Origin: a virus
Lineage: Duplodnaviria; Caudoviricetes
IMG/VR virus record: IMGVR_UViG_3300025801_000014
Coordinates: 1 to 34,073 of that record
Reading direction: 5' to 3' (one strand)
DNA length: 34,073 bases
The notes below the pieces were generated by a model, which made no database searches, was not told the DNA's origin, and saw only the letters and a list, made by a program, of their open reading frames with translations. A program made the position numbers and the translations under genes. Below, piece by piece: positions 620-30,519 of the stretch. Within the stretch, counting starts at the first letter, position 1. Each line of letters opens with the position of its first letter.

Positions 620-2285
620 GCCCAGGGTCCGGATCGTTCCGGCGGCGGTTGGCTCATCGGGGACGGAGGCGATCGAGCTTGCGGAGTCGACTGGGGTATT
701 GGTCTTGCAGCCGTATCAGCGTGCCCACCTGGTCGATGCCCTCGGTGAGCAGGTGTCGGCTGATGGGCAGCGTCGGTGGGCCGCTTTCGAAGTCGCGTTG
801 TGGGCTGTCCGACAGATGGGTAAGGGTGGTGTTCTTGAGGCCCGTGCGCTTGCGGGTGTGCACTTGTTCGGGGAGAAACGGATCGTCTGGACTGCGACCA
901 GGTTAAAGACCGTGACTGATGCCCAGGAACGGATGATGTTGTATTACGACTCGTCTGATGACCTTCGTAGGCAGGTCAAGAGGGTGTTGACCAGCCACGT
1001 CAACATGGCGATCGAGTTGTACGGCGAGAGCCGAGAGAAGCTGACGGGTCTTAGGAGAATCGAGTTCCACACGAGGACCAAGCATGCGGCTCGTGGTCTT
1101 GCTGGTGACTGCGTGTTTCTGGATGAGGCGTATGGGTTGACCCGTACGTTCTGTGGGGCACTCGTTCCGATCATGGGAACACGTAATGATCCACAGCTGT
1201 GGTACACGTCGTCGCCGCCTCTACCGGACTCGATAGATGAGATGCGGGTGGATCCGGAGACAGCCACCGGCCAGGTGATGTACGACCTACGGGCACGCGC
1301 CGAGGACCCTGATGTGCTGACCGATGATGAGCTCTGCTACCTGGATTGGGGTCCCGAGTGGTGGGTTGACGACGCCGAGCGGGTAGACGCAGACCGTAAG
1401 CGCGACGGGTTGCTACCGATCCGGAAGGACCCGGAACTGTGGCAGAGGCACAATCCGGCGATCGGCCGGCTCCAACGGATTGAGCAGGTAGCGAGGGAAG
1501 CTCGGGCGATGTCGCTACGCACGTTCACTTTAGAAAAGCTCGGCGCATGGCCCAAACCGCCGTACCGGACCAGGAAGTCAAAACCGATCCCGGACGCTGC
1601 GTGGGAGGCCTGTGCGGCGCCGGAAGCGCGTGGTAACGAGTCGCTGGCGCCGGTCGATGTCGCGATCGGGGCCGATGCTGCGCCGGGCCGGGCATGGGCC
1701 TCGATCACTGTCTACGGGGTTAGGTCGGACGGAGTCGGCCAGGCCGAAGTCGTTGACCGGCGCGCCGGAGTGACATGGGTGCCTGAGCGGCTCGCGGAAC
1801 TCCGCAAGTCACACAATCCGCTGGTCATCGTCGTTTCGTCACGTGGTCCTCTGGCATCCACGATCGACGCGATCAAGCAGGCCGGGATCCCGGACCCGGG
1901 CGATCGGCCGGCAGGGGAACAGCAGCCACGCCGTGGTGACCTGCTCGTCACGGGGTTACCGCAGGATGCTTCGGCAACTGCTCAGCTGATTGATGCCGTC
2001 AAGGTGACCGCGTCCCGGAGAGGAGTGGCGGTAGACGGGGTTGACGACGATTCCGAGGTCGAGGAGTTCGCGCATCTCGATGACCCCCGCTTGAACGCGG
2101 CGGTAGGCATCGCGGTCCTCCGGGACGTTGGAGACGGAGCTCAGTCCTGGGGACGGCGGTCCTCACCTGATGACATCAGTTCGTTGTTCGGCGCGAGTCT
2201 GGCCCGGTGGGGATGGCATCAGCGCCGGGCGCTGCTTGACGAGCATCCGCTGACAGCTGAGCAGATCGTTGGGTCGATCCGGTAG
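600..2285 (+). CDS. terL: Terminase large subunit
   Basis: Walker A-like VRQMGKG, Walker B VFLDEA, coupling motif YTSS, nuclease motifs IGADAAP and DDISSL; start placed at ATG 600 (AGGAGG at 588-593). Confidence 0.95.
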   Translation: MPGGRDEPRVRIVPAAVGSSGTEAIELAESTGVLVLQPYQRAHLVDALGEQVSADGQRRWAAFEVALWAVRQMGKGGVLEARALAGVHLFGEKRIVWTATRLKTVTDAQERMMLYYDSSDDLRRQVKRVLTSHVNMAIELYGESREKLTGLRRIEFHTRTKHAARGLAGDCVFLDEAYGLTRTFCGALVPIMGTRNDPQLWYTSSPPLPDSIDEMRVDPETATGQVMYDLRARAEDPDVLTDDELCYLDWGPEWWVDDAERVDADRKRDGLLPIRKDPELWQRHNPAIGRLQRIEQVAREARAMSLRTFTLEKLGAWPKPPYRTRKSKPIPDAAWEACAAPEARGNESLAPVDVAIGADAAPGRAWASITVYGVRSDGVGQAEVVDRRAGVTWVPERLAELRKSHNPLVIVVSSRGPLASTIDAIKQAGIPDPGDRPAGEQQPRRGDLLVTGLPQDASATAQLIDAVKVTASRRGVAVDGVDDDSEVEEFAHLDDPRLNAAVGIAVLRDVGDGAQSWGRRSSPDDISSLFGASLARWGWHQRRALLDEHPLTAEQIVGSIR

Positions 2286-6291: not shown

Positions 6292-6537
6292 ATGAGCGAC
6301 AAGAAGTACTACCGGGTCTCCTATCCGGGACAGCACGCTGTGTACTTCAAGGCAACTGGACAGATGGAAGTACCGAACCCGGTGGTCTCGTACCCGGAGG
6401 ATCACTACATGGTGCAAGAAGCGGCGTGGCTGTTCGATCAGATCGGTCTTGCCGTTGACTCACCTAAGATCGATTCGGTCCAGATCGAGGACGCATCGGC
6501 CCGTCCGGGAACCCGGCGTGGTGGGAGGACCAAGTGA
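6292..6537 (+). CDS. Small head-associated hypothetical protein
   Basis: Strong RBS GGAGAGG; C-terminal EDASARPGTRR resembles the ATAxPGxxR tails of post-capsid actinophage genes. Confidence 0.75.
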   Translation: MSDKKYYRVSYPGQHAVYFKATGQMEVPNPVVSYPEDHYMVQEAAWLFDQIGLAVDSPKIDSVQIEDASARPGTRRGGRTK

Positions 6538-7937
6538 ACGATCAGACCAGCGGGGGAGTCGCGCTCGCCATAATCGACGGCGGCACCTGGTCATCGGTGT
6601 TCGGCCGATCTCTAACCAATCTGCAGCTTTGGGATATTGGGCACGAGGCCAGGATGATCCGCGAGGGTTGCGGGTATCTGCATGTTGAGGCCGGGGTCGG
6701 TGAGGTCGCGCACGGACGCAACAAGCTGATCGAACGGTTCCTGGCTGACACGAAAGCCGACTGGATGCTGACGATCGATACCGATATGGGGTTCGCTCCG
6801 GATCTCCTCGACAATCTCCTGCTTGTTGCCGACGAGGAGCAACGGCCGATGGTCGGCGCGTTGTGCTTCCGCCAGAAGTGGGACCCGAGCGTCCCTGCTG
6901 ATCTAGGGGCGAGGCGTTGGCGCATCGAACCGACACTCTTCAAGTACGGGAGGGTTGACTCGACCCAGGAGGAAGGCTTCGCGCCGATCCTGGACTACCC
7001 CCGGAACGAGCTTATCCAGGTGGACGCCACCGGGGCCGCGTGCCTACTCATCCACCGGGGGCTGCTTGAGCGAATCAAGAAAGAGATCGGACCGGTCTGG
7101 TTCGAGCCGTTGAAGCACCCGTCGGCCGCGCCGGAAGGCAAACCACGCTGGTTCAGCGAGGACCTCTCGTTCTGCGCCAGGGTTGCGGCGGTCGGTGATC
7201 AGATCCACGTAGACACCGGTGTGCAGACCACCCATCACCGCGATGGGTTGTTTCTGGACGAGGTGACCTATGACCAGGAACGGAACGCCCGGGAATCCAG
7301 AAGCCCCCGGCCGATGTCGGAGCAACCGAGCGAGGACGTCTTCCCTTTGCATCCCGAATCGCGCTGGACCGCCCGCAGACCAGAATGCCCGCACCCTGAG
7401 CTGTGGCACTCTCCCGATGCCCAGTCGACCGAGATTGAGGTCACGGAGCTTGTCGCGAGATTCGTCCGGGCACTTCAGCCAAGTCTCGTCGTCGAGACGG
7501 GTGCGTGCATCGGGCAGACATCAAACGCGATCGGCCGGGCGTTGGTCGCCAACGGGCATGGTCGGTTGCTGTCGCTGGAACCGGTTAGTCAGCTATGGCA
7601 GATCGCGTCAGGTCGATGCTCCGGTCTCCCTGTTGACATCGTGCAGTCTGAGAGCCTGCCGTATCTGACGGTCCCGGTAGAGCGTAGGGGAGAGATGTCC
7701 ATCGGGACTGTGGGGTTCGCGTGGCTGGACTCCTTGACTGAGCTTCGGATCCCGGAGTTGGTCGCGTTGCGTGACTTCGGGTGGTTGGCTCCGGGCGCGA
7801 TCATCGGCGTCCATGACACTGGGCCGCAACACAACCCGCTCGGAGATCAGCTTCGGGCGTTGCCGTGGATCCGGTACCTGGATCTCCTCACCCCGCGGGG
7901 AGTCGTCTTCCTGCAAGTAGAAGATGACGATGAGTAG
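6534..7937 (+). CDS. GT-A (GT2-like) glycosyltransferase fused to class I SAM-dependent methyltransferase
   Basis: N-half: GRN, WMLTIDTD (DxD), TGAACLLIHR, SEDLSFC; C-half: VVETGACIG, SLEP, WLDS, APGAIIGVHDT. Confidence 0.85.
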   Translation: MNDQTSGGVALAIIDGGTWSSVFGRSLTNLQLWDIGHEARMIREGCGYLHVEAGVGEVAHGRNKLIERFLADTKADWMLTIDTDMGFAPDLLDNLLLVADEEQRPMVGALCFRQKWDPSVPADLGARRWRIEPTLFKYGRVDSTQEEGFAPILDYPRNELIQVDATGAACLLIHRGLLERIKKEIGPVWFEPLKHPSAAPEGKPRWFSEDLSFCARVAAVGDQIHVDTGVQTTHHRDGLFLDEVTYDQERNARESRSPRPMSEQPSEDVFPLHPESRWTARRPECPHPELWHSPDAQSTEIEVTELVARFVRALQPSLVVETGACIGQTSNAIGRALVANGHGRLLSLEPVSQLWQIASGRCSGLPVDIVQSESLPYLTVPVERRGEMSIGTVGFAWLDSLTELRIPELVALRDFGWLAPGAIIGVHDTGPQHNPLGDQLRALPWIRYLDLLTPRGVVFLQVEDDDE

Positions 7938-16127: not shown

Positions 16128-17348
16128 ATGGCTGACACGTATGCCGACTACGCGGCGCTTGCAGCGGCGGAGACTGAAGGGGTCGACTACCAGATCTTGT
16201 CTGGTACTCCGGCTGGTGCAACGTGGGCTTCTATCGCGATCCACGCTGGGGGGATCGAGCCCGGCTCCGGGGAGATGGCTCGGGAAGTCGCCGGAGAGAG
16301 CATGGATTGGTACAAGTTCGAGGGCATCAAGGCAACCGGGAATTCGGTTCTGCACATCACGGCGACTAACTTCGACGAACCGACCGCCGTTGCCCTGGTC
16401 GCCGCGTCATCTCGGACAGTGTCCTTTCACGGGTACGTCGGGACGGCCGGCCTCCCGGAGACCGCGGTCGGTGGTCTCGATCCACTGCTGACCGGTGCGG
16501 TGATAGCGGCTCTTGGCCGGGCTGGTTACGCGGCCGGGGCAGCACCCTACGAGATCGCGGGGACTGATGCTGGGAACATCTGCAACGCCAACCTGATCTC
16601 TGGTGGGGTCCAGTTGGAGATGTCTCAGGCGCTCAGGGAGTCGTTCTTCCCGGGCGGAGACTACGGGTCGGCGGCTCGGGCGGCTGGAATCTTCACCGAT
16701 GACTTCTACCGGTATGCCTCCGTGGTCCAGGGTGCCCTCTCGGGGTTCGGTGCGATCTCTTCCGGTTCGGCGAACGTCTCAAGATACTGTCTGGCTCCGG
16801 CCCCGGGGGCTGACGTTGACCTGGTGGTGTCGGTCGCTACCGATCATCTTGCCGTGGGTGGCAGCGAGTACATGCACCTGCTTGCCAGGGTGGCTGACAC
16901 GAGCAACTGGTACTCGGCGCGGTTGGCTTTCACGACAGCACAAGCTGTTGAGCTCACGGTTCGGAAGCGGGTAGCTGGCACGGAATCTGCGATCTCCTCG
17001 ACCGTGACCACGGATCTCGTTCATGCAGCCGGAAGTCGAGTAGCGCTCCGGTTCCAGGTGGCTGGTACGACGCTCCGGGCGAAGGCTTGGGCGGATGGGT
17101 TCAGCGAACCCCAATGGATGGCGGAGGTGACGGATGCTTCGCTGGCTGCAGCTGGGTCGGTAGGTGTACGAGCGATCTTGTCGAGTGGCTACTCTGGCAG
17201 CCTGCCGGTGGAGTGCACATTCGGGGAGTTCCGGGATGCGACGAGCCCACAGGCCTTCGTCGTCACTCGGAGCGTTAACGGTGTCGTCAAGACGCATGCT
17301 GACGGGGCTGATGTGCGGTTGTGGCGCCCGGGTCTCCGGGTCTTGTAA
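16128..17348 (+). CDS. Poly-gamma-glutamate hydrolase (PghP-like) domain fused to a tail beta-sandwich C-terminus
   Basis: AIHAGGIEPGSGE, LHITATNFDEP, SFHG, NICN and GVQLEMS match the phage gamma-PGA hydrolase zinc motifs; C-terminus TRSVNGVVKTH...DVRL is a tail-protein ending. Confidence 0.85.
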   Translation: MADTYADYAALAAAETEGVDYQILSGTPAGATWASIAIHAGGIEPGSGEMAREVAGESMDWYKFEGIKATGNSVLHITATNFDEPTAVALVAASSRTVSFHGYVGTAGLPETAVGGLDPLLTGAVIAALGRAGYAAGAAPYEIAGTDAGNICNANLISGGVQLEMSQALRESFFPGGDYGSAARAAGIFTDDFYRYASVVQGALSGFGAISSGSANVSRYCLAPAPGADVDLVVSVATDHLAVGGSEYMHLLARVADTSNWYSARLAFTTAQAVELTVRKRVAGTESAISSTVTTDLVHAAGSRVALRFQVAGTTLRAKAWADGFSEPQWMAEVTDASLAAAGSVGVRAILSSGYSGSLPVECTFGEFRDATSPQAFVVTRSVNGVVKTHADGADVRLWRPGLRVL

Positions 17349-19529: not shown

Positions 19530-19557
19530 AGGCAGCCGATCCTAGGGTCGGCTGCCT
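19530..19557 (-). terminator. Hairpin centred on the pentapeptide gene stop codon
   Basis: AGGCAGCCGATC / GGTCGGCTGCCT inverted repeat around the TAG. Confidence 0.5.
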
Positions 19558-20168
19558 GCCGGCCAGATAGTTGTGTCGTCCCACCTGGCCAAGGTCAGGT
19601 CTGCCCGGGTCAGGTCCGCCCGGGTCAGGTCTGCCCCGGTCAGGTCTGCCCCGGTCAGGTCTGCCCGGGTCAGGTTCGCCCCGGTCAGGTCTGCCTCGGT
19701 CAGGTCCGCCCAGGTCAGGTCAGCTCCGGTCATGGTCGCCCGGGCCAGGTCTGCCCGGGTCAGGTTCGCCCAGGTCAGGTCTGCCCGGGTCAGGTTCGCC
19801 TCGGCCATGGTCGCCTCGGTCAGGTTCGCCCGGGCCAGGTCTGCCCGGGTCAGGGTCGCCTCGGTCAGGTTCGCCTCGGCCAGGTTCGCCCGGGCCAGGT
19901 TCGCCCCGGCCATGGTCGCCTCGGTCAGGGTCGCCTCGGTCATGGTCGCCCGGGCCAGGTTCGCCCCGGCCAGGTTCGCCTCGGTCATGGTTGCCTCGGC
20001 CAGGTCCGCCCCGGCCAGGTCCGCCCCGGCCAGGTTCGCCTCGGTCATGGTTGCCTCGGCCAGGTCCGCCCCGGCCAGGTCCGCCCCGGCCAGGTTCGCC
20101 CCGGCCAGGTCCGCCCGGGTCAGGTCCGCCCCGGCCAGGTCAGCGCCTGGTTTGATGATGTAGCTCAT
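19542..20168 (-). CDS. Pentapeptide repeat protein (208 aa)
   Basis: About 38 consecutive A[DNT][LM]xx repeats between MSYIIKPG and TTIWPAGSRP; RBS AGGAGAGAAGAAAGG. Confidence 0.93.
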   Translation of the reverse strand: MSYIIKPGADLAGADLTRADLAGANLAGADLAGADLAEATMTEANLAGADLAGADLAEATMTEANLAGANLARATMTEATLTEATMAGANLARANLAEANLTEATLTRADLARANLTEATMAEANLTRADLTWANLTRADLARATMTGADLTWADLTEADLTGANLTRADLTGADLTGADLTRADLTRADLTLARWDDTTIWPAGSRP

Positions 20169-20201
20169 GGTTTGCCTTTCTTCTCTCCTGCACGTTGTTA
20201 C

Positions 20202-20353
20202 GGTGCCCGCCCGCCCGGTGCCCGCCCGGTGCCCGCCCGGTGCCCGCCCGCCCGGTGCCCGCCCGGTGCCCGCCCGGTGCCCGCCCGCCCGGTGCCCGCC
20301 CGGTGCCCGCCCGCCCGGTGCCCGCCCGCCCGGTGCCCGCCCGGTGCCCGCCC
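20202..20353. repeat. Tandem array of 12 units: GGTGCCCGCCC (11 bp, x7) and GGTGCCCGCCCGCCC (15 bp, x5)
   Basis: Unit starts at 20202, 20217, 20228, 20239, 20254, 20265, 20276, 20291, 20302, 20317, 20332, 20343; one inverted GCGGGCACC at 20359-20367. Confidence 0.97.
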
Positions 20354-20378
20354 GGTGAGCGGGCACCCGGGCACGGAG

Positions 20379-21523: not shown

Positions 21524-22705
21524 ATGCCAACCGATCAACTACGCAGGGTAGATCTTGAGAACATCGCGGAAGCGCTGAGGTCACAACGGACCCGGGCAAC
21601 GGACGTCGTTGTCAGCGGGACTCAGGTACGAGCAAGCGGCGGGATCCTGACCGTTGCCGGGAGCAGCTACCGGCCGAACAGCATCGCCGACGAGGGGATC
21701 TCAACCAAGCTCGACATCCCCCGCGCCTATCTCCGGCGCATGCACGACAGTCACCTGGACCTGTACGACGCCAACATCAATGGATGGCTTGACCGGTACC
21801 CCGGCAAGCTACTCCTACGGCTGCTCGGAGAAGGCCCCTGCAGCGTCTGCCTCGGGTCCGGCGAGATCTGCAAAGACGGCAACTGGAGTTCCTGCCCCGG
21901 ATGCGATGGACCGGGCACGGTCGGGATCGTCCGGGCGGTCCTATCAGACCGCTACCGGGCAATTGACAACTTGGACGTGCTGCTCGCTGCCCTCAGCGGG
22001 ATCCGCCGGGCAGGGGTCACCGGGATCGAAGTCGACGCCGACCTGACCGAGCGGCGTATGTACGTCCGGGTCACCGCACCGAGCATCGCGGCGAACGCCA
22101 GCGGGTTGGTCGCGGAATACAGGGACCCGTACACCGGGCGTCGTGGCTCCCAGCTTCCCCACATGTGGGCCGGCCTGGTCATCACCAACTCGGAGACCGG
22201 AAACGGATCATTTGCGATCACCCCGCGGGTCGTGCTGCAGGTCTGCCGCAACGGGCAGACCATCACCGCGGACGCCATGAGGTCAGTTCACCTCGGCGGA
22301 AGGCTGGACGAGGGGGAAGTGCAGTGGAGCAATGAGACTCTCCAGCGGAATCTTGCGCTGATCACCTCGCAGACCAGCGATGCGGTGGCGAAGTTCCTGA
22401 GTGTCGGATACGTCGAGAAGCAGGTCAAGAAGATCGCTGAGCTTTCCGGCGTTGACCTTCCCGAGCCGGCACCGGTGGTAGAGATGGTCTCGAAGCGGCT
22501 CGGGTTCAACGAGGTTCAGGCAAGCGAGATCCTCAGCGCGTTCGTGCGGGGCGGATCCCCGACCGCTGGCGGAGTGATGCACGCGGTTACCGCGGTGGCC
22601 CAGCGGCAGGACAGCGGGGATACCGCCAGCGAGATGGAGGACAAGGCGCTCAACGCGTTGATGCTTGCGGCCGCGGGGTCCCGTCACCAGCAGATCCGAG
22701 GCTGA
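21524..22705 (+). CDS. DUF932-like protein with inserted zinc-finger-like loop
   Basis: KLDIPRAYLRR, VRAVLSDRYRAIDN, ITNSETGNGS, QVCRNG, VHLGG motifs; RBS GGGAG. Confidence 0.75.
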   Translation: MPTDQLRRVDLENIAEALRSQRTRATDVVVSGTQVRASGGILTVAGSSYRPNSIADEGISTKLDIPRAYLRRMHDSHLDLYDANINGWLDRYPGKLLLRLLGEGPCSVCLGSGEICKDGNWSSCPGCDGPGTVGIVRAVLSDRYRAIDNLDVLLAALSGIRRAGVTGIEVDADLTERRMYVRVTAPSIAANASGLVAEYRDPYTGRRGSQLPHMWAGLVITNSETGNGSFAITPRVVLQVCRNGQTITADAMRSVHLGGRLDEGEVQWSNETLQRNLALITSQTSDAVAKFLSVGYVEKQVKKIAELSGVDLPEPAPVVEMVSKRLGFNEVQASEILSAFVRGGSPTAGGVMHAVTAVAQRQDSGDTASEMEDKALNALMLAAAGSRHQQIRG

Positions 22706-22741
22706 TCGGACAAGGCCTCAACGCGTTGATGCTTGCGGCCG
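22639..22741 (+). repeat. Direct repeat 35/34 bp flanking a 34-bp insert
   Basis: GGACAAGGC(G)CTCAACGCGTTGATGCTTGCGGCCG at 22639-22673 and 22708-22741. Confidence 0.92.
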
Positions 22742-22764
22742 GCAAGAAGTAACAGGACTGGACC

Positions 22765-22804
22765 CCGGGTGCCCGTCGCAGCCTCAGGCGCGGCGGGCAC
22801 CCGG
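22765..22804 (+). terminator. GC-rich intergenic hairpin
   Basis: CCGGGTGCCCGTCGC / GCGGCGGGCACCCGG. Confidence 0.6.
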
Positions 22805-22826
22805 CCGGGTAAGAGAGGGTTGTCTC

Positions 22827-23036
22827 ATGGACAAGGTCTACACGGTGCGTGAAGTCGCCGATCTGATACGGGTAGATCACAGGACGGTGTCCCGATGGTG
22901 CCGCCTTGGGTTGCTGAAGTCGTACCGAACCCCAGGAGGCCACTACCGGATCCGAGACGAAGACGTCATCGGATCCTTCCGAGAGGACAACTCGAAGACC
23001 GGCGCGCAGACGCGCGCCGTAACAGAGAGGTCATGA
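22827..23036 (+). CDS. MerR-like HTH, BldC/excisionase family
   Basis: YTVREVADLIRVDHRTVSRW...SYRTPGGHYRIR; RBS GAGAGGG. Confidence 0.85.
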   Translation: MDKVYTVREVADLIRVDHRTVSRWCRLGLLKSYRTPGGHYRIRDEDVIGSFREDNSKTGAQTRAVTERS

Positions 23037-23037
23037 G

Positions 23038-23847
23038 ATGAGTAGTTTCCTCGCGCCGATCCGGCGGTACGAGACCGCCAAGGGTCACTACTACAAGGAC
23101 GCGGCCGGGCAGAGGGTGCCTGGCGTAACCACGATCATCGGAGACGGATTGCCGAAACCCGCCCTGATCAACTGGGCCGCTAACGCTACCGCTGAACATG
23201 CGGTGGATCAGTGGGATGCGCTGTCAGACCTTCCGCCAGCGAAGCGGCTAAAGCGCTTGCAGGGTGCCCGGTACGAGGAGCGGGATGCGGCCGGTCGGCG
23301 GGGCACCGAGGTGCACCAGGCGGCCGAGAAGCTATCTGCCGGCGAGACGGTCCAGGTCCCGGACGTGATCGCCGGGCACGTCGAGTCGTACGCGCGGTTC
23401 ATGGATGAATTCATGATCGAACCCGTGCATGTTGAGTTCGGGTGCGTGTCCTACCGATGGGGGTACGCCGGGACCGCGGACCTCTGCGCGTGGATGAATA
23501 TCCCGGGCAAGGGCCGCAAGCTTGTCCTCGTTGACCTGAAGACGACGCGGTCAGGGATCTTCGAGGACATCGTATTGCAGCTTGCCGCTTACCGGCTCGC
23601 GGACAAGTGGCTCGTCGAGGGGGAAGAGATCAAACCGGTCAAGGTCGACTACTGTGCTGGTCTGCATATCCGGGCCGATGGCTACGACCTGATCCCGGTG
23701 GAAGCCGGTGAACAGCAGCACAAGCAGTTCCTGTACGTCAAGCAGGTAGGTCGGTTCGTGGCCGGGTTCCGGGATTTGGTTGGCGCTCCGATCGTGCCAC
23801 CGACCACCAGCACCTTCCGGCTGGTCAGAGAGGATCAGAATCGATGA
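23038..23847 (+). CDS. PD-(D/E)XK exonuclease (RecE/Cas4-like phage family)
   Basis: PGVTTI, RGTEVH, YAGTADL, VDLKT, LQLAAY motifs. Confidence 0.88.
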   Translation: MSSFLAPIRRYETAKGHYYKDAAGQRVPGVTTIIGDGLPKPALINWAANATAEHAVDQWDALSDLPPAKRLKRLQGARYEERDAAGRRGTEVHQAAEKLSAGETVQVPDVIAGHVESYARFMDEFMIEPVHVEFGCVSYRWGYAGTADLCAWMNIPGKGRKLVLVDLKTTRSGIFEDIVLQLAAYRLADKWLVEGEEIKPVKVDYCAGLHIRADGYDLIPVEAGEQQHKQFLYVKQVGRFVAGFRDLVGAPIVPPTTSTFRLVREDQNR

Positions 23848-24944
23848 GCATGGACATCGTCCCGACCGATCCGGTCGGACAACTCACACAGCAGCCAGCA
23901 CCCGCGTACTTCCCGGCCGACGCGACAACGGAAGCTCTGGGCCGGCTCAAGGACTGGGTTGTTGCTGCAAGCTCGGCAAGCGCGCTCGTTGCCCCACTGA
24001 TCGATACGCCGTTCATTCCGGCGACGTTCAAGCCGAAGCTCGACCCGCGGGCAACCCCGGAGGATGTCGAACGGGCTCGGAGAGTAGCGATCGCTAACGC
24101 CACCGGCGCCGTGCTTCAGGGCATCACGCTCGGGTTGGATCCGTTGACCAGCTTGCAACAGATCTACGTCGTGCACGGTCGTCCCGGGATGTACGCCAAG
24201 ATGATGGTGGCTCTTGTGCAATCCAAGGGGCATGAGGTATGGACCGAGGACCTCACAGACACCCGGGCCGTTGTCTGCGGCCGGAGGAAGGGCACACAGC
24301 ATCCCGAACGTGTCACTGTGACGATGGATCAGGCACGCCGGGCAGGCTGGGTATCAGCCAACAAGTCGTATGGGACCGTGCCACAGGACATGTTGTGGGC
24401 TCGTGCGGCCGGCCGGGTGTGTGACCGCATCGCGTCGGACGTCATCAAGGGGATAGCAACGGTCGAGCAGCTCAGCGATACGTCCGGCCAGCGGTCGGCA
24501 ACCAGGACGGTGCGTTCACCGAAACAGAAGCCGATCATGGTTGACGCGGAGGAGCCGGACCTTGAATTCGACCAGGACCATCCCGCTGTCTCCGCCAGCA
24601 ACCAGGAAGACAACCCAGCACCGGTGGTCCAGACGCCGGACATCAGCCAGAAACAACGAACCAAAATCATCGCGATGCTGAGGGATCTCAGCATCGGCAA
24701 ACGCAAGGAATGCTTGACTGAGATCAGTTTGATCATCGGCCGTGACATCGCCAGCACGACTGAGCTGTCCGCGAGCGAGGGCATCCGGATCATCGACGAG
24801 CTTGATCGGAGGCTGGCGAAGCTGCAGGAACCGGAGGCTGCGCCAGAACCGGTGCTTACCGAGGAACCGGCCGGAGACCAGCCATACGAGGTAGGCCCGG
24901 AGGAGTGGCCCGTCGTGGCCGAAGTCCCTACCGAGGACAGCTGA
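23844..24944 (+). CDS. RecT-like ssDNA annealing protein
   Basis: Follows the exonuclease; LGLDPLTSLQQIYVVHGRP, TMDQARRAGW, PQDMLWARA, ASDVIKG motifs; acidic tail. Confidence 0.8.
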   Translation: MSMDIVPTDPVGQLTQQPAPAYFPADATTEALGRLKDWVVAASSASALVAPLIDTPFIPATFKPKLDPRATPEDVERARRVAIANATGAVLQGITLGLDPLTSLQQIYVVHGRPGMYAKMMVALVQSKGHEVWTEDLTDTRAVVCGRRKGTQHPERVTVTMDQARRAGWVSANKSYGTVPQDMLWARAAGRVCDRIASDVIKGIATVEQLSDTSGQRSATRTVRSPKQKPIMVDAEEPDLEFDQDHPAVSASNQEDNPAPVVQTPDISQKQRTKIIAMLRDLSIGKRKECLTEISLIIGRDIASTTELSASEGIRIIDELDRRLAKLQEPEAAPEPVLTEEPAGDQPYEVGPEEWPVVAEVPTEDS

Positions 24945-25129
24945 TGGGCACGAAAGGGAGAGCCTGCGACGGGAAGACCAAGTACACAACCCATGAGGCA
25001 GCCATCGCGGCGATCGACCGGATGGTCACGCAAGGGGCAGCCGAGGCCGCACAGCAGGCCTACCGGTGCAAGCACTGCGGGTCTTGGCACACCGGCCACA
25101 TCAGCCCGAGGAGAAGGAAGACCCGATGA
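24944..25129 (+). CDS. Small zinc-binding protein
   Basis: CDGKTKY...AYRCKHCGSWH; TGATG coupling to the upstream gene. Confidence 0.75.
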   Translation: MGTKGRACDGKTKYTTHEAAIAAIDRMVTQGAAEAAQQAYRCKHCGSWHTGHISPRRRKTR

Positions 25130-25704
25130 CTACCTTCATCGCGATCGACCACTCGTTGACCGCTACCGGCCTCGCCGTGTGGCGCAACCGCCGCATCTGG
25201 GTAACAACCATCAAGACAACCAAACCGAGGGAAGACGCGCACGGTTGGGGCAACGCACCCCGGCACCAGAAGATCGCGGCTGAGGTCCTCTCGTATGTCG
25301 AGCCAGGGGATACCTGCTCGGCGATCGAAGGCCAGATCAAGTATCAGGGGCACGGGACCGCTGACCTGGACCTCGCGGCCCTACGGGCAGTGCTGGTCTA
25401 CCGGCTCGCGGCCCGTCGGGTACCCGTCGCCTCGCCGCACCTTACCCATGTCAAGGTGTACGCCACCGGAAAAGGCAACGCCAGCAAGGACGACGTCGTC
25501 AGCGCAGCGCGCACGCATGGTTTCGCGCCTAAGAACGACAACGAGGCTGACGCAGTGTGGATCCTGACGATGATGCTCGACGCCTACCGGAAGCCCATAG
25601 TCAGGATGCCAGACCGCAACCGGGCCGCTATCGCCAAGACAACATGGCCCGTGTTCATCCCGGAGCCGAGCGGCGCCGGGACCGAAGAGAAGGGTGATCA
25701 CTGA
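25126..25704 (+). CDS. ruvC: RuvC-like Holliday junction resolvase
   Basis: IAIDHSLTATG, AIEG, VKVYATGKGNASKDDV, DNEADA motifs. Confidence 0.9.
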   Translation: MTTFIAIDHSLTATGLAVWRNRRIWVTTIKTTKPREDAHGWGNAPRHQKIAAEVLSYVEPGDTCSAIEGQIKYQGHGTADLDLAALRAVLVYRLAARRVPVASPHLTHVKVYATGKGNASKDDVVSAARTHGFAPKNDNEADAVWILTMMLDAYRKPIVRMPDRNRAAIAKTTWPVFIPEPSGAGTEEKGDH

Positions 25705-26081
25705 TGGTTGTCAACATCTCAGGAACGTTCCGGAAGGACGAGAGGGAGTCCAACGGCCTTGAGGCCATCCGTCTTGACCTGGTGGAGCACGGCCTAGCCC
25801 GGAGAGTCGTGGTGGGCCTGGTCGAGACCAAGTTCGTGAAGACGGATGTCCAGGACGGCGGCACCAGGGTGCCAACGGTCAAGTTCGTGGCCATCGAACC
25901 ACTCACCGGGGCATCCGCAGACAAGGCCCGGGAGATGCTTGACGAGGCACGCCGGGAACGCACCGGACAGATGACCCAACCATCGCTGATGGATGAGGTC
26001 TACGAAGACGACCAGGACGAAATGGACCTCGACGAGGAAAGCCGGATCGGAAGCCCAGACTTCAGCGAACCGGAACTGTAG
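25704..26081 (+). CDS. Hypothetical protein with acidic tail
   Basis: TGATG coupling; 125-aa ORF in operon. Confidence 0.75.
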   Translation: MVVNISGTFRKDERESNGLEAIRLDLVEHGLARRVVVGLVETKFVKTDVQDGGTRVPTVKFVAIEPLTGASADKAREMLDEARRERTGQMTQPSLMDEVYEDDQDEMDLDEESRIGSPDFSEPEL

Positions 26082-26088
26082 ATCACCT

Positions 26089-26123
26089 CGGGTGCCGCCC
26101 CGCAGTGGACGGGGCGGCACCCG
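26089..26123 (+). terminator. GC-rich intergenic hairpin
   Basis: Perfect 14-bp stem CGGGTGCCGCCCCG / CGGGGCGGCACCCG. Confidence 0.65.
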
Positions 26124-26143
26124 GCCCGGGAAAGGGAGCCACC

Positions 26144-26512
26144 ATGGAAGCCCCTCAACCAACCGCACTTATCAAAAGCGCAAGGCACGAAGGATTATAC
26201 AAGACGATTATCGACCGGTCTGGATACTGGGTCAACGATGCCGCTTGGCTACGCGCCAGGGCCGCTGATGAGGTGATCGGAACCTGCCGACAGTGCGGAG
26301 AGGGGTACCTGACCCCAGACCCTACCCCGCCGGTTAACCACGAAACCGGCGAAGAATTGAAACTCTCGTGGTATTCGGCGACGTGCCAGACGTGCGGGCA
26401 TGAGGTCGCGCTACCGAACGGGAAGGTCCTCCGGGAATCCAGCCGTAATCGCGAGATACCTGGCGGATGGTGGAAAGCCCGCAATACCACGCTCAAGGGC
26501 CGTGATAGTTGA
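26144..26512 (+). CDS. Zinc-ribbon hypothetical protein
   Basis: CRQCG and CQTCG pairs; AAGGGAG RBS. Confidence 0.7.
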   Translation: MEAPQPTALIKSARHEGLYKTIIDRSGYWVNDAAWLRARAADEVIGTCRQCGEGYLTPDPTPPVNHETGEELKLSWYSATCQTCGHEVALPNGKVLRESSRNREIPGGWWKARNTTLKGRDS

Positions 26513-27399
26513 TGACCTGGTTCCGTATCGATGATGACTTTTACGATCATCCCAAGGTCAAGAGGATTCCGAAAAGGTATCGGCTGGCTGCCGTAGGCCT
26601 CTGGGCAGCGGTCGGGATGTATTGCACGAGGCACCTTACGGACGGGCGTTTCACCGAGCAGGACGCCCTAGATCAACTGGGCACGCCGACGCTCGTCCGG
26701 TGGCTCGTGGACGTCGGGCTCTGGTCGCGCGAGGCGGATGGAAGCCTCGCGTACCACGATTGGACCCACTATCAGGAGTCACGCGCGAAGGTCCTGGGGC
26801 GACGCCAAGGCAACCGCGAACGCGTCGCGAAGTGGAGAGAGAAACGCTCTGACCAGGACAAAGACGATCCTGTAACGCCGTTACAAAATAGTACTCGCGT
26901 ACGTGCCCGCGCGCCGGCTGGCACGCGGGCACACTCCCGACCCGACCCAATAAGTACTAGTGGTACCTCTAGTAGGTCTCCTCAAGGTCAAGAGCGCGCG
27001 GGCGAACCGAGCGAGCCAACCAGGGTCGAATCTCTCCTCGCCGAATACCGAAACAACTCACCGAGAGGCATACCCACGAAGCAAGCCGAAAGGCTCGCAG
27101 CCGAAATACATCAGCTCACCAAGGACGGATACACCGACGATGAGATCAGGGCCGGAATGTCGCAACTAAGGACCCGGGGAGTCGGACCATCGGTACTCCC
27201 CTCGCTCGTCGACGAATACGCCAACAAGACGCCAAACCAAAACAAACAAACAAACGGAAAGCCACTCAATGGTCAGTCAACGACCGACCTACGAATAGCA
27301 CAGGCCCTGGCGGCCGGAGAGAAAGTAAGCCGAGAAGAACGAATGAAACAACTAAACGATAGTGCCCGCCCAGCAATAGAAGATGGAATGTCAGCGTGA
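26512..27399 (+). CDS. Phage replication initiator (RepA / replisome-organiser-like)
   Basis: WFRIDDDFYDHPK, AVGLW, TDG, LVDVGLW, YHDW, RERVAKWR, SRPDP motifs. Confidence 0.8.
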   Translation: MTWFRIDDDFYDHPKVKRIPKRYRLAAVGLWAAVGMYCTRHLTDGRFTEQDALDQLGTPTLVRWLVDVGLWSREADGSLAYHDWTHYQESRAKVLGRRQGNRERVAKWREKRSDQDKDDPVTPLQNSTRVRARAPAGTRAHSRPDPISTSGTSSRSPQGQERAGEPSEPTRVESLLAEYRNNSPRGIPTKQAERLAAEIHQLTKDGYTDDEIRAGMSQLRTRGVGPSVLPSLVDEYANKTPNQNKQTNGKPLNGQSTTDLRIAQALAAGEKVSREERMKQLNDSARPAIEDGMSA

Positions 27400-27989
27400 T
27401 TACATTTGATGAGGTAGCACGGATCCTGGCGAAGTGCGCCGCGTACGACCAACGGACCGTCGGCGAGGGAGACATCCGGGCCTGGCACGAAGCGCTCAAT
27501 GTCGCAGAGCCTCCAATCGAAATCGAAGATGCACTCATTTCGGTAGCACGCTTTTACGCAGAACGCACCGAGGGGAGGATCCGTCCGGCCCACGTCATCG
27601 AGGCGTCCCATGCGATGGACCTCGATCGTCGGCAAAGGGCGCGGGACGAGATCCGTGATCGGGCATTGGAGCGGGCGACCGAGGCTCGGGCTGTGGAGGT
27701 CGTCGGGACCCGGGACCGCGCGGACGAGGTGAACCAGCTCCTCGACGATCTCCGTCGCCGAATCGGTCCGCGAGCGAGGCCGGAAGTGTTCCGTCGGCCG
27801 GAGTGGTTGCGCTCCGACCGGGCCAGGGATGCAGCTTCGGTGCGTCGTCGCGTGGATCCGTCGGGGCTGGGCTGGTGCGTGGAGTGCCATCGGGCCGGGC
27901 GGATGGTGCTTGCCGTTGACCCCGATGCCGGATCGGAATGCCGTGAGCATTCCACGGATGCCCCGCCCGGACCGCGAGAGCAACGCTGA
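27396..27989 (+). CDS. Helicase loader/inhibitor-like protein
   Basis: ILAKCAAYDQRTVGEGDIRAWHEAL...IRPAHV N-domain typical of the gene after the initiator; C-terminal CVEC...C..H. Confidence 0.65.
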   Translation: MITFDEVARILAKCAAYDQRTVGEGDIRAWHEALNVAEPPIEIEDALISVARFYAERTEGRIRPAHVIEASHAMDLDRRQRARDEIRDRALERATEARAVEVVGTRDRADEVNQLLDDLRRRIGPRARPEVFRRPEWLRSDRARDAASVRRRVDPSGLGWCVECHRAGRMVLAVDPDAGSECREHSTDAPPGPREQR

Positions 27990-28196
27990 GGGCCTAACGG
28001 GCGCCGTTGGTACCCTCGTCTAGGGTACGAGATTCCATCGCCTTAGAGGGGATCTCAGCGGGTTTCCGGGTGGTCGGCCACGAAGCGACCACCCGGACAC
28101 CGGACACGCCACCCGCACAGATCGATGTAGATCACCGCAACGGCCGATGCCGAATAGCTAGACATCTAGTCATCCGACGAGATAGAGTCAGCCGCC

Positions 28197-28550
28197 GTGA
28201 GCGACCTACGGATGACACCACAAGTAGTGGTGATCCTGACCACACTCCTCCGGGCGACCACCGGAGAGCTGGGCGACGAGCCCATGAAGCACGGGATGTA
28301 CGCCTACGAACTAAGCAACGCCACCGGAATACCGACCGGCACCATCCACCCGATCTTGAAGCGGCTCGTTAAGAGAGGGTACGCACATGACACATGGAGG
28401 GAGATCCAGTCCAGGAGGAGAAGGTACTACCGCCTGAGCAACCAAGGACGAATGCAAGCAACCGCAGCGAAGCAGATCTACCGATACGTAGTGCCCTCCA
28501 AGACACGCTCCGTGCCAGCCGAGGTGACCCAACTCATCATCGACGCCTAA
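28197..28550 (+). CDS. PadR-family winged-helix regulator
   Basis: YAYELSNATGIPTGTIHPILKRL...RRRYYRLS motifs; start 28197 or 28212. Confidence 0.85.
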   Translation: MSDLRMTPQVVVILTTLLRATTGELGDEPMKHGMYAYELSNATGIPTGTIHPILKRLVKRGYAHDTWREIQSRRRRYYRLSNQGRMQATAAKQIYRYVVPSKTRSVPAEVTQLIIDA

Positions 28551-28579
28551 TCACGCACCGTGACCAAAGGGACAGACCG

Positions 28580-28975
28580 TTGACCAACTGGAAAGCCATA
28601 GCCAAAGCAATATCGATCCTGGCCTCAGACCACCGAATCGCGGCCATGAACGCATTCGCCACCGGATCAGACGACGAATGGAACCACGAATCAGACACAG
28701 CTGAAAGATGGTCGACCGCAGCAAGGCAGGCGAGGACCGCCGAAGCACGGGCAGGCAGGAAGAGCAACCTCACGGACGGCGAGGCCCTGGCCGAGGACCG
28801 GGTCGACCTGGTCCTAAGGCTCCTCGCCGACCCGGGCAAACGGAGCGCATCCGAGATTACCGAAATCACCGAAGTCCTCATCGACGAGCTGTCACGGGCA
28901 ACCCGGATAGACGAGAAGCAGAGAGCGGATTGCATCAAGAATCTCAAGGCAACCCAACAGGAAAAGTCACAATGA
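28580..28975 (+). CDS. Hypothetical protein
   Basis: TTG start after AAAGGGA; ATGA overlap with the next gene. Confidence 0.6.
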   Translation: MTNWKAIAKAISILASDHRIAAMNAFATGSDDEWNHESDTAERWSTAARQARTAEARAGRKSNLTDGEALAEDRVDLVLRLLADPGKRSASEITEITEVLIDELSRATRIDEKQRADCIKNLKATQQEKSQ

Positions 28976-29250
28976 CCACCGAAGACGACCCAGTGACCGC
29001 AGCATGGAACGCATACGTCGAGGCCGTTATCAACGCAGAAAACGCCCAACGCGTTTCCATCGCAGCCGCACAAGCGGCAGTCAAGGCATCAATCGCCTAC
29101 TCCGAAGCTATCAACGCCGACGAAGATGCCAAGCACCACACCGTCTACGCGTGGTCTGGACCTCCCACCATGTGTCGTGTCCTCAACGCCGACGAAGATG
29201 CCAAGCACCACACCGACCCATCAACACCCCAGGAAGACAACCCATCATGA
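28972..29250 (+). CDS. Ala-rich hypothetical protein with internal duplication
   Basis: ATGA overlaps at both ends; NADEDAKHHT occurs twice. Confidence 0.7.
   Translation: MTTEDDPVTAAWNAYVEAVINAENAQRVSIAAAQAAVKASIAYSEAINADEDAKHHTVYAWSGPPTMCRVLNADEDAKHHTDPSTPQEDNPS
29111..29215 (+). repeat. Perfect 33-bp direct repeat flanking a 39-bp insert
   Basis: TCAACGCCGACGAAGATGCCAAGCACCACACCG at 29111-29143 and 29183-29215. Confidence 0.95.
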
Positions 29251-30042: not shown

Positions 30043-30519
30043 ATGAAGAAGATCACCGCAGTACTCGCAGGGATCACCGCTGCCGGAACCCTCGCGATCG
30101 CCACACCCGCAGTCGCGGAAACCAGCACCTACCGGCCATCGCCGACCGCAACCCCGGACCACGCGGCAACGCACTACACCTGCTACGCGCAAGACCCGCG
30201 AGACTCCGACAAGACGGTGCACTGGACCGCCATCCAGCCCTGCCCGACCCGCTTCACCTCACCTCCCCCGCAGACCAGCACCGAACCGGCCGGCGAGACC
30301 ACGACCACGACCACTGCCATGGTCGACGAGACCAGCACCCCGGCAGGCGTCACGACAGCGCCATCGGCCACAAACAGCACCACGGCTGCTGAAGACCAGC
30401 TCCCGGTGACCGGCAACAACATGGTGGTGCTGCTGATGGTCGGGGCCGCACTGATGATCGCCGGACTTGTCGCGATCGCCATCAGCCGCAAACGGGGAAA
30501 CACCAGGTTCGAAGCCTGA
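30043..30519 (+). CDS. Secreted LPXTG cell-wall-anchored protein
   Basis: Signal peptide MKKITAVLAG...PAVA, Thr/Pro-rich stalk, LPVTG, TM helix, RKR tail. Confidence 0.88.
   Translation: MKKITAVLAGITAAGTLAIATPAVAETSTYRPSPTATPDHAATHYTCYAQDPRDSDKTVHWTAIQPCPTRFTSPPPQTSTEPAGETTTTTTAMVDETSTPAGVTTAPSATNSTTAAEDQLPVTGNNMVVLLMVGAALMIAGLVAIAISRKRGNTRFEA

Follow-up and report, generated by a model that had tools for sequence, protein, structure and literature searches.

Two units of CRISPR-like dimensions in a tailed phage genome as probable scars of off-target Cas1-Cas2 integration

In 2018, Nivala, Shipman and Church reportedly described off-target (non-canonical) spacer integration in Escherichia coli, giving rise to 'neo-CRISPR' units. 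Here we examine two units of comparable form in a tailed phage present in wetland metagenome runs (IMG/VR record IMGVR_UViG_3300025801_000014), which was analysed over the whole record of 34,073 bases, hereafter the window. In each unit a stretch of phage coding sequence is duplicated around an insert of the size of a spacer from a CRISPR array, and both units are probably scars of off-target integration into the phage by a host Cas1-Cas2. An earlier note, made from the letters of the window alone, had named footprints of ectopic host Cas1-Cas2 integration as one of two possible origins; repeat-plus-spacer sizes and target duplication make this the best reading, although it is unproven, with no host, donor or protospacer adjacent motif (PAM) found.

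In vitro, Cas1-Cas2 is reported to carry out full-site integration outside CRISPR arrays, at positions separated by one repeat length (PMC6698737). Reports that cite the 2018 work describe off-target integration in vivo in E. coli that over-expresses the enzymes, and call its natural frequency unclear (10.1101/148544, PMC11788318, PMC7054753). The 'neo-CRISPR' units share with the phage units a spacer-sized insert between repeat-length copies of non-CRISPR DNA and the lack of cas genes at the site. The phage units differ from them in being natural, in representing two events in one genome, in occurring in several strains and in having an apparently carrier-related donor with no integrase found; their targets are also unlike sampled host repeats. 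No description of natural scars of this kind in wild phage genomes was found in the accessible parts of the literature searched, which excludes most subscription journals.

Two other described systems are close in form. The mini-arrays of viruses SPV1 and SPV2 have repeats like host CRISPR repeats and an upstream leader (PMC6858448). Like the phage units, they comprise one spacer and two repeats without cas genes, and their spacer matches a relative better than self, which for insert 2 of the phage would follow from a 79% match with coding-type substitutions. In contrast, the repeats of the phage units are phage coding sequence, differ between the units and form no hairpin. Phage CRISPR-like regulatory RNAs are likewise short repeat-spacer-like phage elements, but they are reported to load into host Cas proteins by way of CRISPR-like repeats and to target host genes (10.1101/2024.10.29.618823), whereas the units have no host-like repeat and the insert matches phage genes.

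Two duplicated targets with inverted inserts

Unit 1 occupies 22639-22673, 22674-22707 and 22708-22741 (copy, insert and copy; 35/34/34, with one base missing from copy 2), and unit 2 occupies 29111-29143, 29144-29182 and 29183-29215 (33/39/33, with identical copies, 33/33). The CRISPR-like dimensions given by the earlier note are thus exact in coordinates and lengths, and its two repeats are indeed unrelated, having only a 7-mer in common. Its term "host-gene-derived" holds for them only in the sense of a resident phage gene, each repeat being phage coding sequence. In a scan of the window that left out the pentapeptide/GC repeat tract at 19.45-20.4 kb, the two units were the sole direct repeats scoring >17 at 15-399-base spacing. 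That the only two long short-range repeats both have repeat-plus-spacer dimensions counts in favor of Cas1-Cas2 integration.

The target of unit 1 is a DUF932-like gene (phrog_1362; 21524-22705, + strand). Copy 1 (22639-22673, +) comprises the last codons of this gene (EDKALNALMLAA) in frame and encodes the conserved last helix of the protein, as seen in a comparison of 120 homolog ends. Insert 1 (22674-22707, - strand; 34 bases, or 36 if the duplication is counted as 33) supplies a new stop codon on the + strand, and because copy 1 now reads into it the C-terminus is altered from GKK to AGSRHQQIRG. Copy 2 (22708-22741, +), which lacks one base, is followed by the original gene end, GKK-stop. 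The nearest homolog, P0002 of a sister phage (76% identical), ends in ALALAAGKTR, matching the sequence after copy 2; unit 1 is therefore an insertion with target duplication, and the check for empty alleles in relatives that the earlier note had proposed came out as an empty allele predicts. Unit 1 has since undergone decay, by at least one deletion. A very stable hairpin lies just after the unit at 22758-22808 (z -5.2), where it likely terminates the DUF932-like message or serves as a signal for its processing.

Unit 2 lies in an orphan open reading frame (ORF) of 92 amino acids (28972-29250, +) for which no homologs were found, an Atlas search giving only leads <0.8. Copy 1 (29111-29143, +) is 33 bases coding NADEDAKHHT and copy 2 (29183-29215, +) is identical to it, while insert 2 (29144-29182, -) is 39 bases long and, when reverse-complemented, reads GHDTWWEVQTTRR, a diverged padR-like piece. 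The 72-base addition leaves the ORF in frame, and from this in-frame duplication a single-copy empty allele may be inferred.

The units are unlikely to have originated as assembly artefacts. Contigs from three wetland runs (X1, X2 and X3), perhaps of one campaign and with X1 perhaps the source sample, bridge unit 1 without listed gaps or joints. A 99-base contig piece with unchanged insert 2 was found in all three runs, and the in-frame protein of the unit 2 ORF is encoded on 5 contigs. In this contig comparison, which omits joints at repeats, the depth of the insert 2 piece was 76.5 in X1 (flanks 66.8/95.3), 18.4 in X2 (28.6/29.2) and 239.9 in X3 (264.4/236.1), and the repeat piece of unit 2 had ~2x the depth of the insert piece (160 vs 76.5 in X1; 40.3 vs 18.4 in X2). 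Rare empty alleles may be compatible with these data, as minority empty copies may be with the insert depth of 18.4 against flanks of ~29 in X2. Both units were found in strains that otherwise differ by few changes per thousand.

Sources of the inserts

The earlier note had described both inserts as antisense to diverged copies of the phage's own genes, a claim that stands for insert 2 and padR but is only suggestive for insert 1 and the terminase gene. Reverse-complemented insert 2 matches the segment at 28383-28421 (+) of the phage's own padR-like gene (28197-28550), only ~720 bases away, at 31/39 positions (79%); the best of 1000 shuffles reached 27, and 1/600 real phage 39-mers reached 31. 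Of the 8 differences, 3 are synonymous base changes and 5 change an amino acid, I/V and S/T exchanges among them. The insert 2 peptide scored 55 with the PadR cluster of the phage itself but no more than 24 with any of 149 other PadR-like proteins, and the donor was therefore close kin. Insert 2 is improbable as a simply aged self copy on these substitutions, equal-rate ageing giving P ~5e-4 (8 insert differences vs 0 between the repeat copies). Divergence of the insert is no proof that a competitor was its source, however. Had an ancestor or relative captured a piece of itself, and had the scarred genes, or padR and terminase, been exchanged afterwards, the outcome would be indistinguishable.

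Insert 1 gave a weaker signal. Its reverse complement reads DQPR and DLLVTGP and aligns, with a 7-base gap, to the segment at 1920-1960 (+) of the phage's own terminase gene (QQPRRGDLLVTGL), a weak match that marks this gene of a relative as a possible source. The first six mismatches all fall at the third codon position, and the motif PRRGDL.VT is kept in sister terminases. With gapped codon-aware scores, which were chosen after the match was seen, controls equalled it in 1/150 shuffles and, at two gap costs, in 1/450 and 6/250 real 34-mers; under plain nucleotide scoring, 184/250 real 34-mers did so. Ungapped, insert 1 matched own genes at 21/34 positions, equal to the median of shuffles, and its protein score of 37 was typical of shuffles. 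We consider it likely, but unproven, that insert 1 would be a piece of a related phage's terminase gene minus 7 bases. The portal gene (SASDL) was rejected as a source (~19/34, below chance level).

It is very improbable that the units had different causes (a foreign capture at unit 2, say, and at unit 1 an unrelated duplication enclosing a host or random fragment) or that they are products of assembly. Separate causes would accord with the unequal duplication lengths and with the loss of the terminase match of insert 1 under plain nucleotide scoring, and the contigs that bridge unit 1, the insert 2 piece in all three runs and the in-frame protein on 5 contigs argue against an artefact.

No donor was found for either insert in the collections searched. 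A blastn search of GenBank phages with both units gave best E values of 0.9 and 0.05 and no full-insert match, no donor was found among plasmids, and degenerate patterns had 0 matches in viral contigs for insert 2 and 0 for insert 1, the sole match of an own-terminase pattern there being a 99.7% identical strain. A pattern search of insert 1 alone with 3 mismatches allowed gave 0 hits in 401 Actinomycetes genomes, and a padR donor was not found at 80% likeness in the loose contigs of four runs. A single-protein scan found no close relatives; besides the contig itself, a scan of metagenomes gave 8 distant loci, and a scan of genomes gave one 27% match.

Off-target integration weighed against strand switching

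Sequence comparison would place the host of the phage among Actinomycetes: homologs of phage proteins point to that group, named homologs of the DUF932-like protein being from Micromonospora, Nonomuraea and kin and the best terminase matches being actinophages. A search through the lysin gave, as its best match among 401 genomes, a 47% gene with no phage neighbors evident among the listed ORFs, and a DNA search, in which 2 candidates per genome were scored, gave gene-level homologies and short weak matches. For comparison, 50 arrays were recovered from 60 actinobacterial cas1 loci. Their repeats were 29-30 (18/50), 32-33 (15), 36-38 (16) or 42 bases long (1), and four cas1 genes that were typed were closest to I-C (two), I-B (one) and I-E (one); the 32-33-base repeats are presumably of type I-C, with a TTC PAM. 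Repeats of 33 bases, the duplication length of unit 2, occurred in 8/50 arrays. Inserts of 34-36 and of 39 bases both fall within the overall sampled spacer range. A 33-base ruler fits unit 2 exactly (33/39), and it also fits unit 1 (33/36) provided that two of the matching end bases are coincidental.

We propose that an actinobacterial host with active adaptation would have cut prespacers from a phage ~20% diverged from the present padR and terminase alleles. The donor could have been a co-infecting relative or the then-resident ancestor genome, with padR and terminase alleles that were later replaced. Cas1-Cas2 would have joined the prespacers at staggered positions separated by one repeat length, for which 33 bases is the simplest value (33/36 and 33/39), and the target would have been duplicated by fill-in. 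The scars may have survived because a protein is altered at its final residues alone in one case, while the other scar preserves the frame of a small ORF; drift or hitchhiking may then have carried them through the lineage. The units are likely inert, as a leader, a repeat hairpin and a common repeat on which Cas6 could act are all absent. Most likely, a reaction known experimentally has here taken place naturally on a phage.

Several observations weigh against off-target integration. Repeats of 35 bases, the duplication length of unit 1, occurred in 0/50 arrays, and the spacers of the eight 33-base arrays were 32-37 bases long, so the 39 bases of insert 2 fall outside. If the 7-base gap is real, insert 1 was originally 41-43 bases long, which is too long. 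While the off-target sites in vitro are reported to share repeat features (PMC6698737), the phage targets showed no likeness above chance to the sampled repeats (46% and 68% of random window pieces scored equally). The defining comparison, of duplication length with host repeat length, was made with the sampled arrays in place of the host. The 5' flanks of the phage's own homologs, TAC and GAA, share no motif, and the PAM is not readable because no donor was found. An isolated 28/46/28 unit is also present in a non-coding part of another DUF932-bearing viral contig (L019:1655-1756), where the insert looks local. Finally, a 22-base inversion and a 48-base indel segregate among strains of this phage, showing the lineage to undergo ordinary rearrangement at short homologies.

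These rearrangements count in favor of a possible, though unlikely, alternative, in which the nascent strand switched to the opposite strand of a related phage (or of a since-replaced local allele), copied 34-41 bases and re-primed 33-35 bases back, or in which annealase-aided illegitimate recombination took place, the CRISPR-like sizes being coincidental. Template switching predicts inverted inserts, as observed; the source paralog of insert 2 is close by, the phage encodes a RecT-like annealase, and the unit sizes fit no single sampled array exactly. Target 1 also carries a 12-base palindrome (22650-22661, inside copy 1), as do 1.6% of window 35-mers. The inversion lies in the annealase gene (24819-24843) between the 6-base inverted repeats CTGGCG/CGCCAG, and there the X2 and X3 strains differ from the window at 10 positions. 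The 48-base indel (28510-28557) at the padR end, with 5 shared bases, is present in X1, mixed in X2 and absent in X3. In alleles without the 48 bases, the stop codon of padR and the start codon that follows it overlap, suggesting that the window carries the insertion, and a 43-base piece within it had no match above chance (26/43, control mean 25).

Against this alternative, template switching gives no reason for 33-35-base duplications with 34-39-base inserts in two of two events. With the phage's own homologs as donor stand-ins, no clear junction microhomology was seen; a single junction, in unit 2, may share 3-4 bases at the most. Units were also sought in other genomes by the rule that they be isolated, with repeats >=24 bases that are >=90% alike and a period of 58-80. 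None was present in 80 annealase-centred loci (1.34 Mb), nor in 9 complete records that encode related exonucleases (0.40 Mb, partly shared with the annealase set; exonucleases ~62-74% identical in eight and 39% in one). By the same rule there were 2 units in the 34-kb window and 2 in the 2.80 Mb of 160 control viral loci, a difference in density with a Poisson P of ~3e-4 that is overstated because the window was chosen for its units. Both control units came from L019, one of 80 DUF932 loci (1.46 Mb); they are the 28/46 unit and a low-complexity 28/41. The scan of related genomes that the earlier note had called for therefore yielded nothing beside the annealase or exonuclease and one locus among those with DUF932. 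The units do not travel with the DUF932 or annealase family, which points to lineage history and not to a carried module.

Phage genes, antisense function and implications

The earlier note had drawn attention to a Cas4-like exonuclease and an annealase between the units, and offered recombinase-driven capture as a candidate phage system. The RecT-like annealase is confirmed, and the pair at 23038-24944 (+) is of the RecE/RecT-like kind seen in actinophages, but no link between it and the units was found, 0/80 loci of the annealase family carrying one. Homologs of the exonuclease are annotated by depositors as RecE-like, exonuclease VIII or 'Cas4 family exonuclease'. Cas4 nucleases have conserved iron-sulfur cysteines. 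The exonuclease itself (23038-23847) has no PF01930 match and no NCBIfam or Pfam match, and no cysteine is invariant across 6 aligned homologs, so the Cas4-like part of the description is not supported. On present evidence the pair are bystanders, and the 0/80 annealase loci with a unit, together with the 0/9 exonuclease records, argue against a phage capture system. Family searches of the phage contig gave no match for Cas1, as the earlier note had stated, or for Cas4, tyrosine integrase or reverse transcriptase; despite the lack of a tyrosine integrase match, the phage has an excisionase-like HTH gene. Absence of enzyme families is not certain because CheckV rates the contig 45% complete. 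The contig may be nearly whole despite this figure: its genes begin with the small terminase region and end with an HNH gene, and the sister contigs measure 33.6-34.4 kb (34,427 bases at the longest).

It is improbable that the units are a selected trait, in which fragments of competitor genes are taken up, or retained, by the lineage as a source of antisense RNA against terminase and PadR messages, with or without a phage capture enzyme. Both inserts are antisense in the rightward transcription direction, insert 1 lies just before the strong hairpin, and both units persist across strains although direct repeats beside an annealase should favor loss. However, two of two antisense is a 1-in-4 chance, and relatives with a like exonuclease-annealase pair carry no units. 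The units have no shared repeat and no identified leader, unit 1 has decayed, and none of the enzyme families searched for was found. Repeat folding was at the level of shuffles (z -0.04 to 0.88), leaving no hairpin for processing, and Rfam had no family match for the repeats. A sigma-70-type promoter scan gave no site near either unit, both of which lie within coding sequence, and no RNA dataset is listed with the phage. Because they have no repeat hairpins and no likeness to sampled host repeats, the units are not mini-arrays, and their processing into guide RNA is not plausible. The sole hint that selection acts is that they persist across strains, for which benign placement is an equally good explanation. 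The antisense RNAs matching competitors that the earlier note envisaged are thus left without support as a function. The units are likely not a phage weapon, and on present evidence they are not a new phage system. A bolder version, in which host spacer integrases move 35-40-base pieces between rival phages and the two misplaced spacers were kept as a Cas-free interviral antisense weapon that dampens rival terminase and PadR from early messages, is highly doubtful.

Elsewhere, the genome encodes terminase, portal, protease, capsid, lysin-like, exonuclease, annealase, RuvC and replication genes. A glycosyltransferase-like gene sits between the head and tail genes (6534-7937), and a tail-region gene carries a poly-gamma-glutamate hydrolase domain (16128-17348). 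The units of a pentapeptide-repeat gene (19542-20168, minus strand) are heavily reshuffled in another strain, accounting for 98/128 differences over 9.5 kb, and a (CGGTGCCCGCC)n tract (20201-20357) comes after this gene. A small secreted protein (30043-30519) bears an LPXTG sortase anchor (LPVTG), for which a surface-exclusion role is a guess.

The case bears on the question, raised elsewhere (10.1101/148544), of whether off-target integration is also common in settings other than engineered E. coli, but alone cannot settle it, as the host, donor and PAM are missing. If the units are indeed scars of host Cas1-Cas2, misfired CRISPR adaptation would leave lasting marks on wild phage genomes, and such scars would be a source of small in-frame novelty in phage genes. 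Each scar would also record the repeat length of a past host together with a piece of a past competitor, and would thereby offer a new clue for host assignment.

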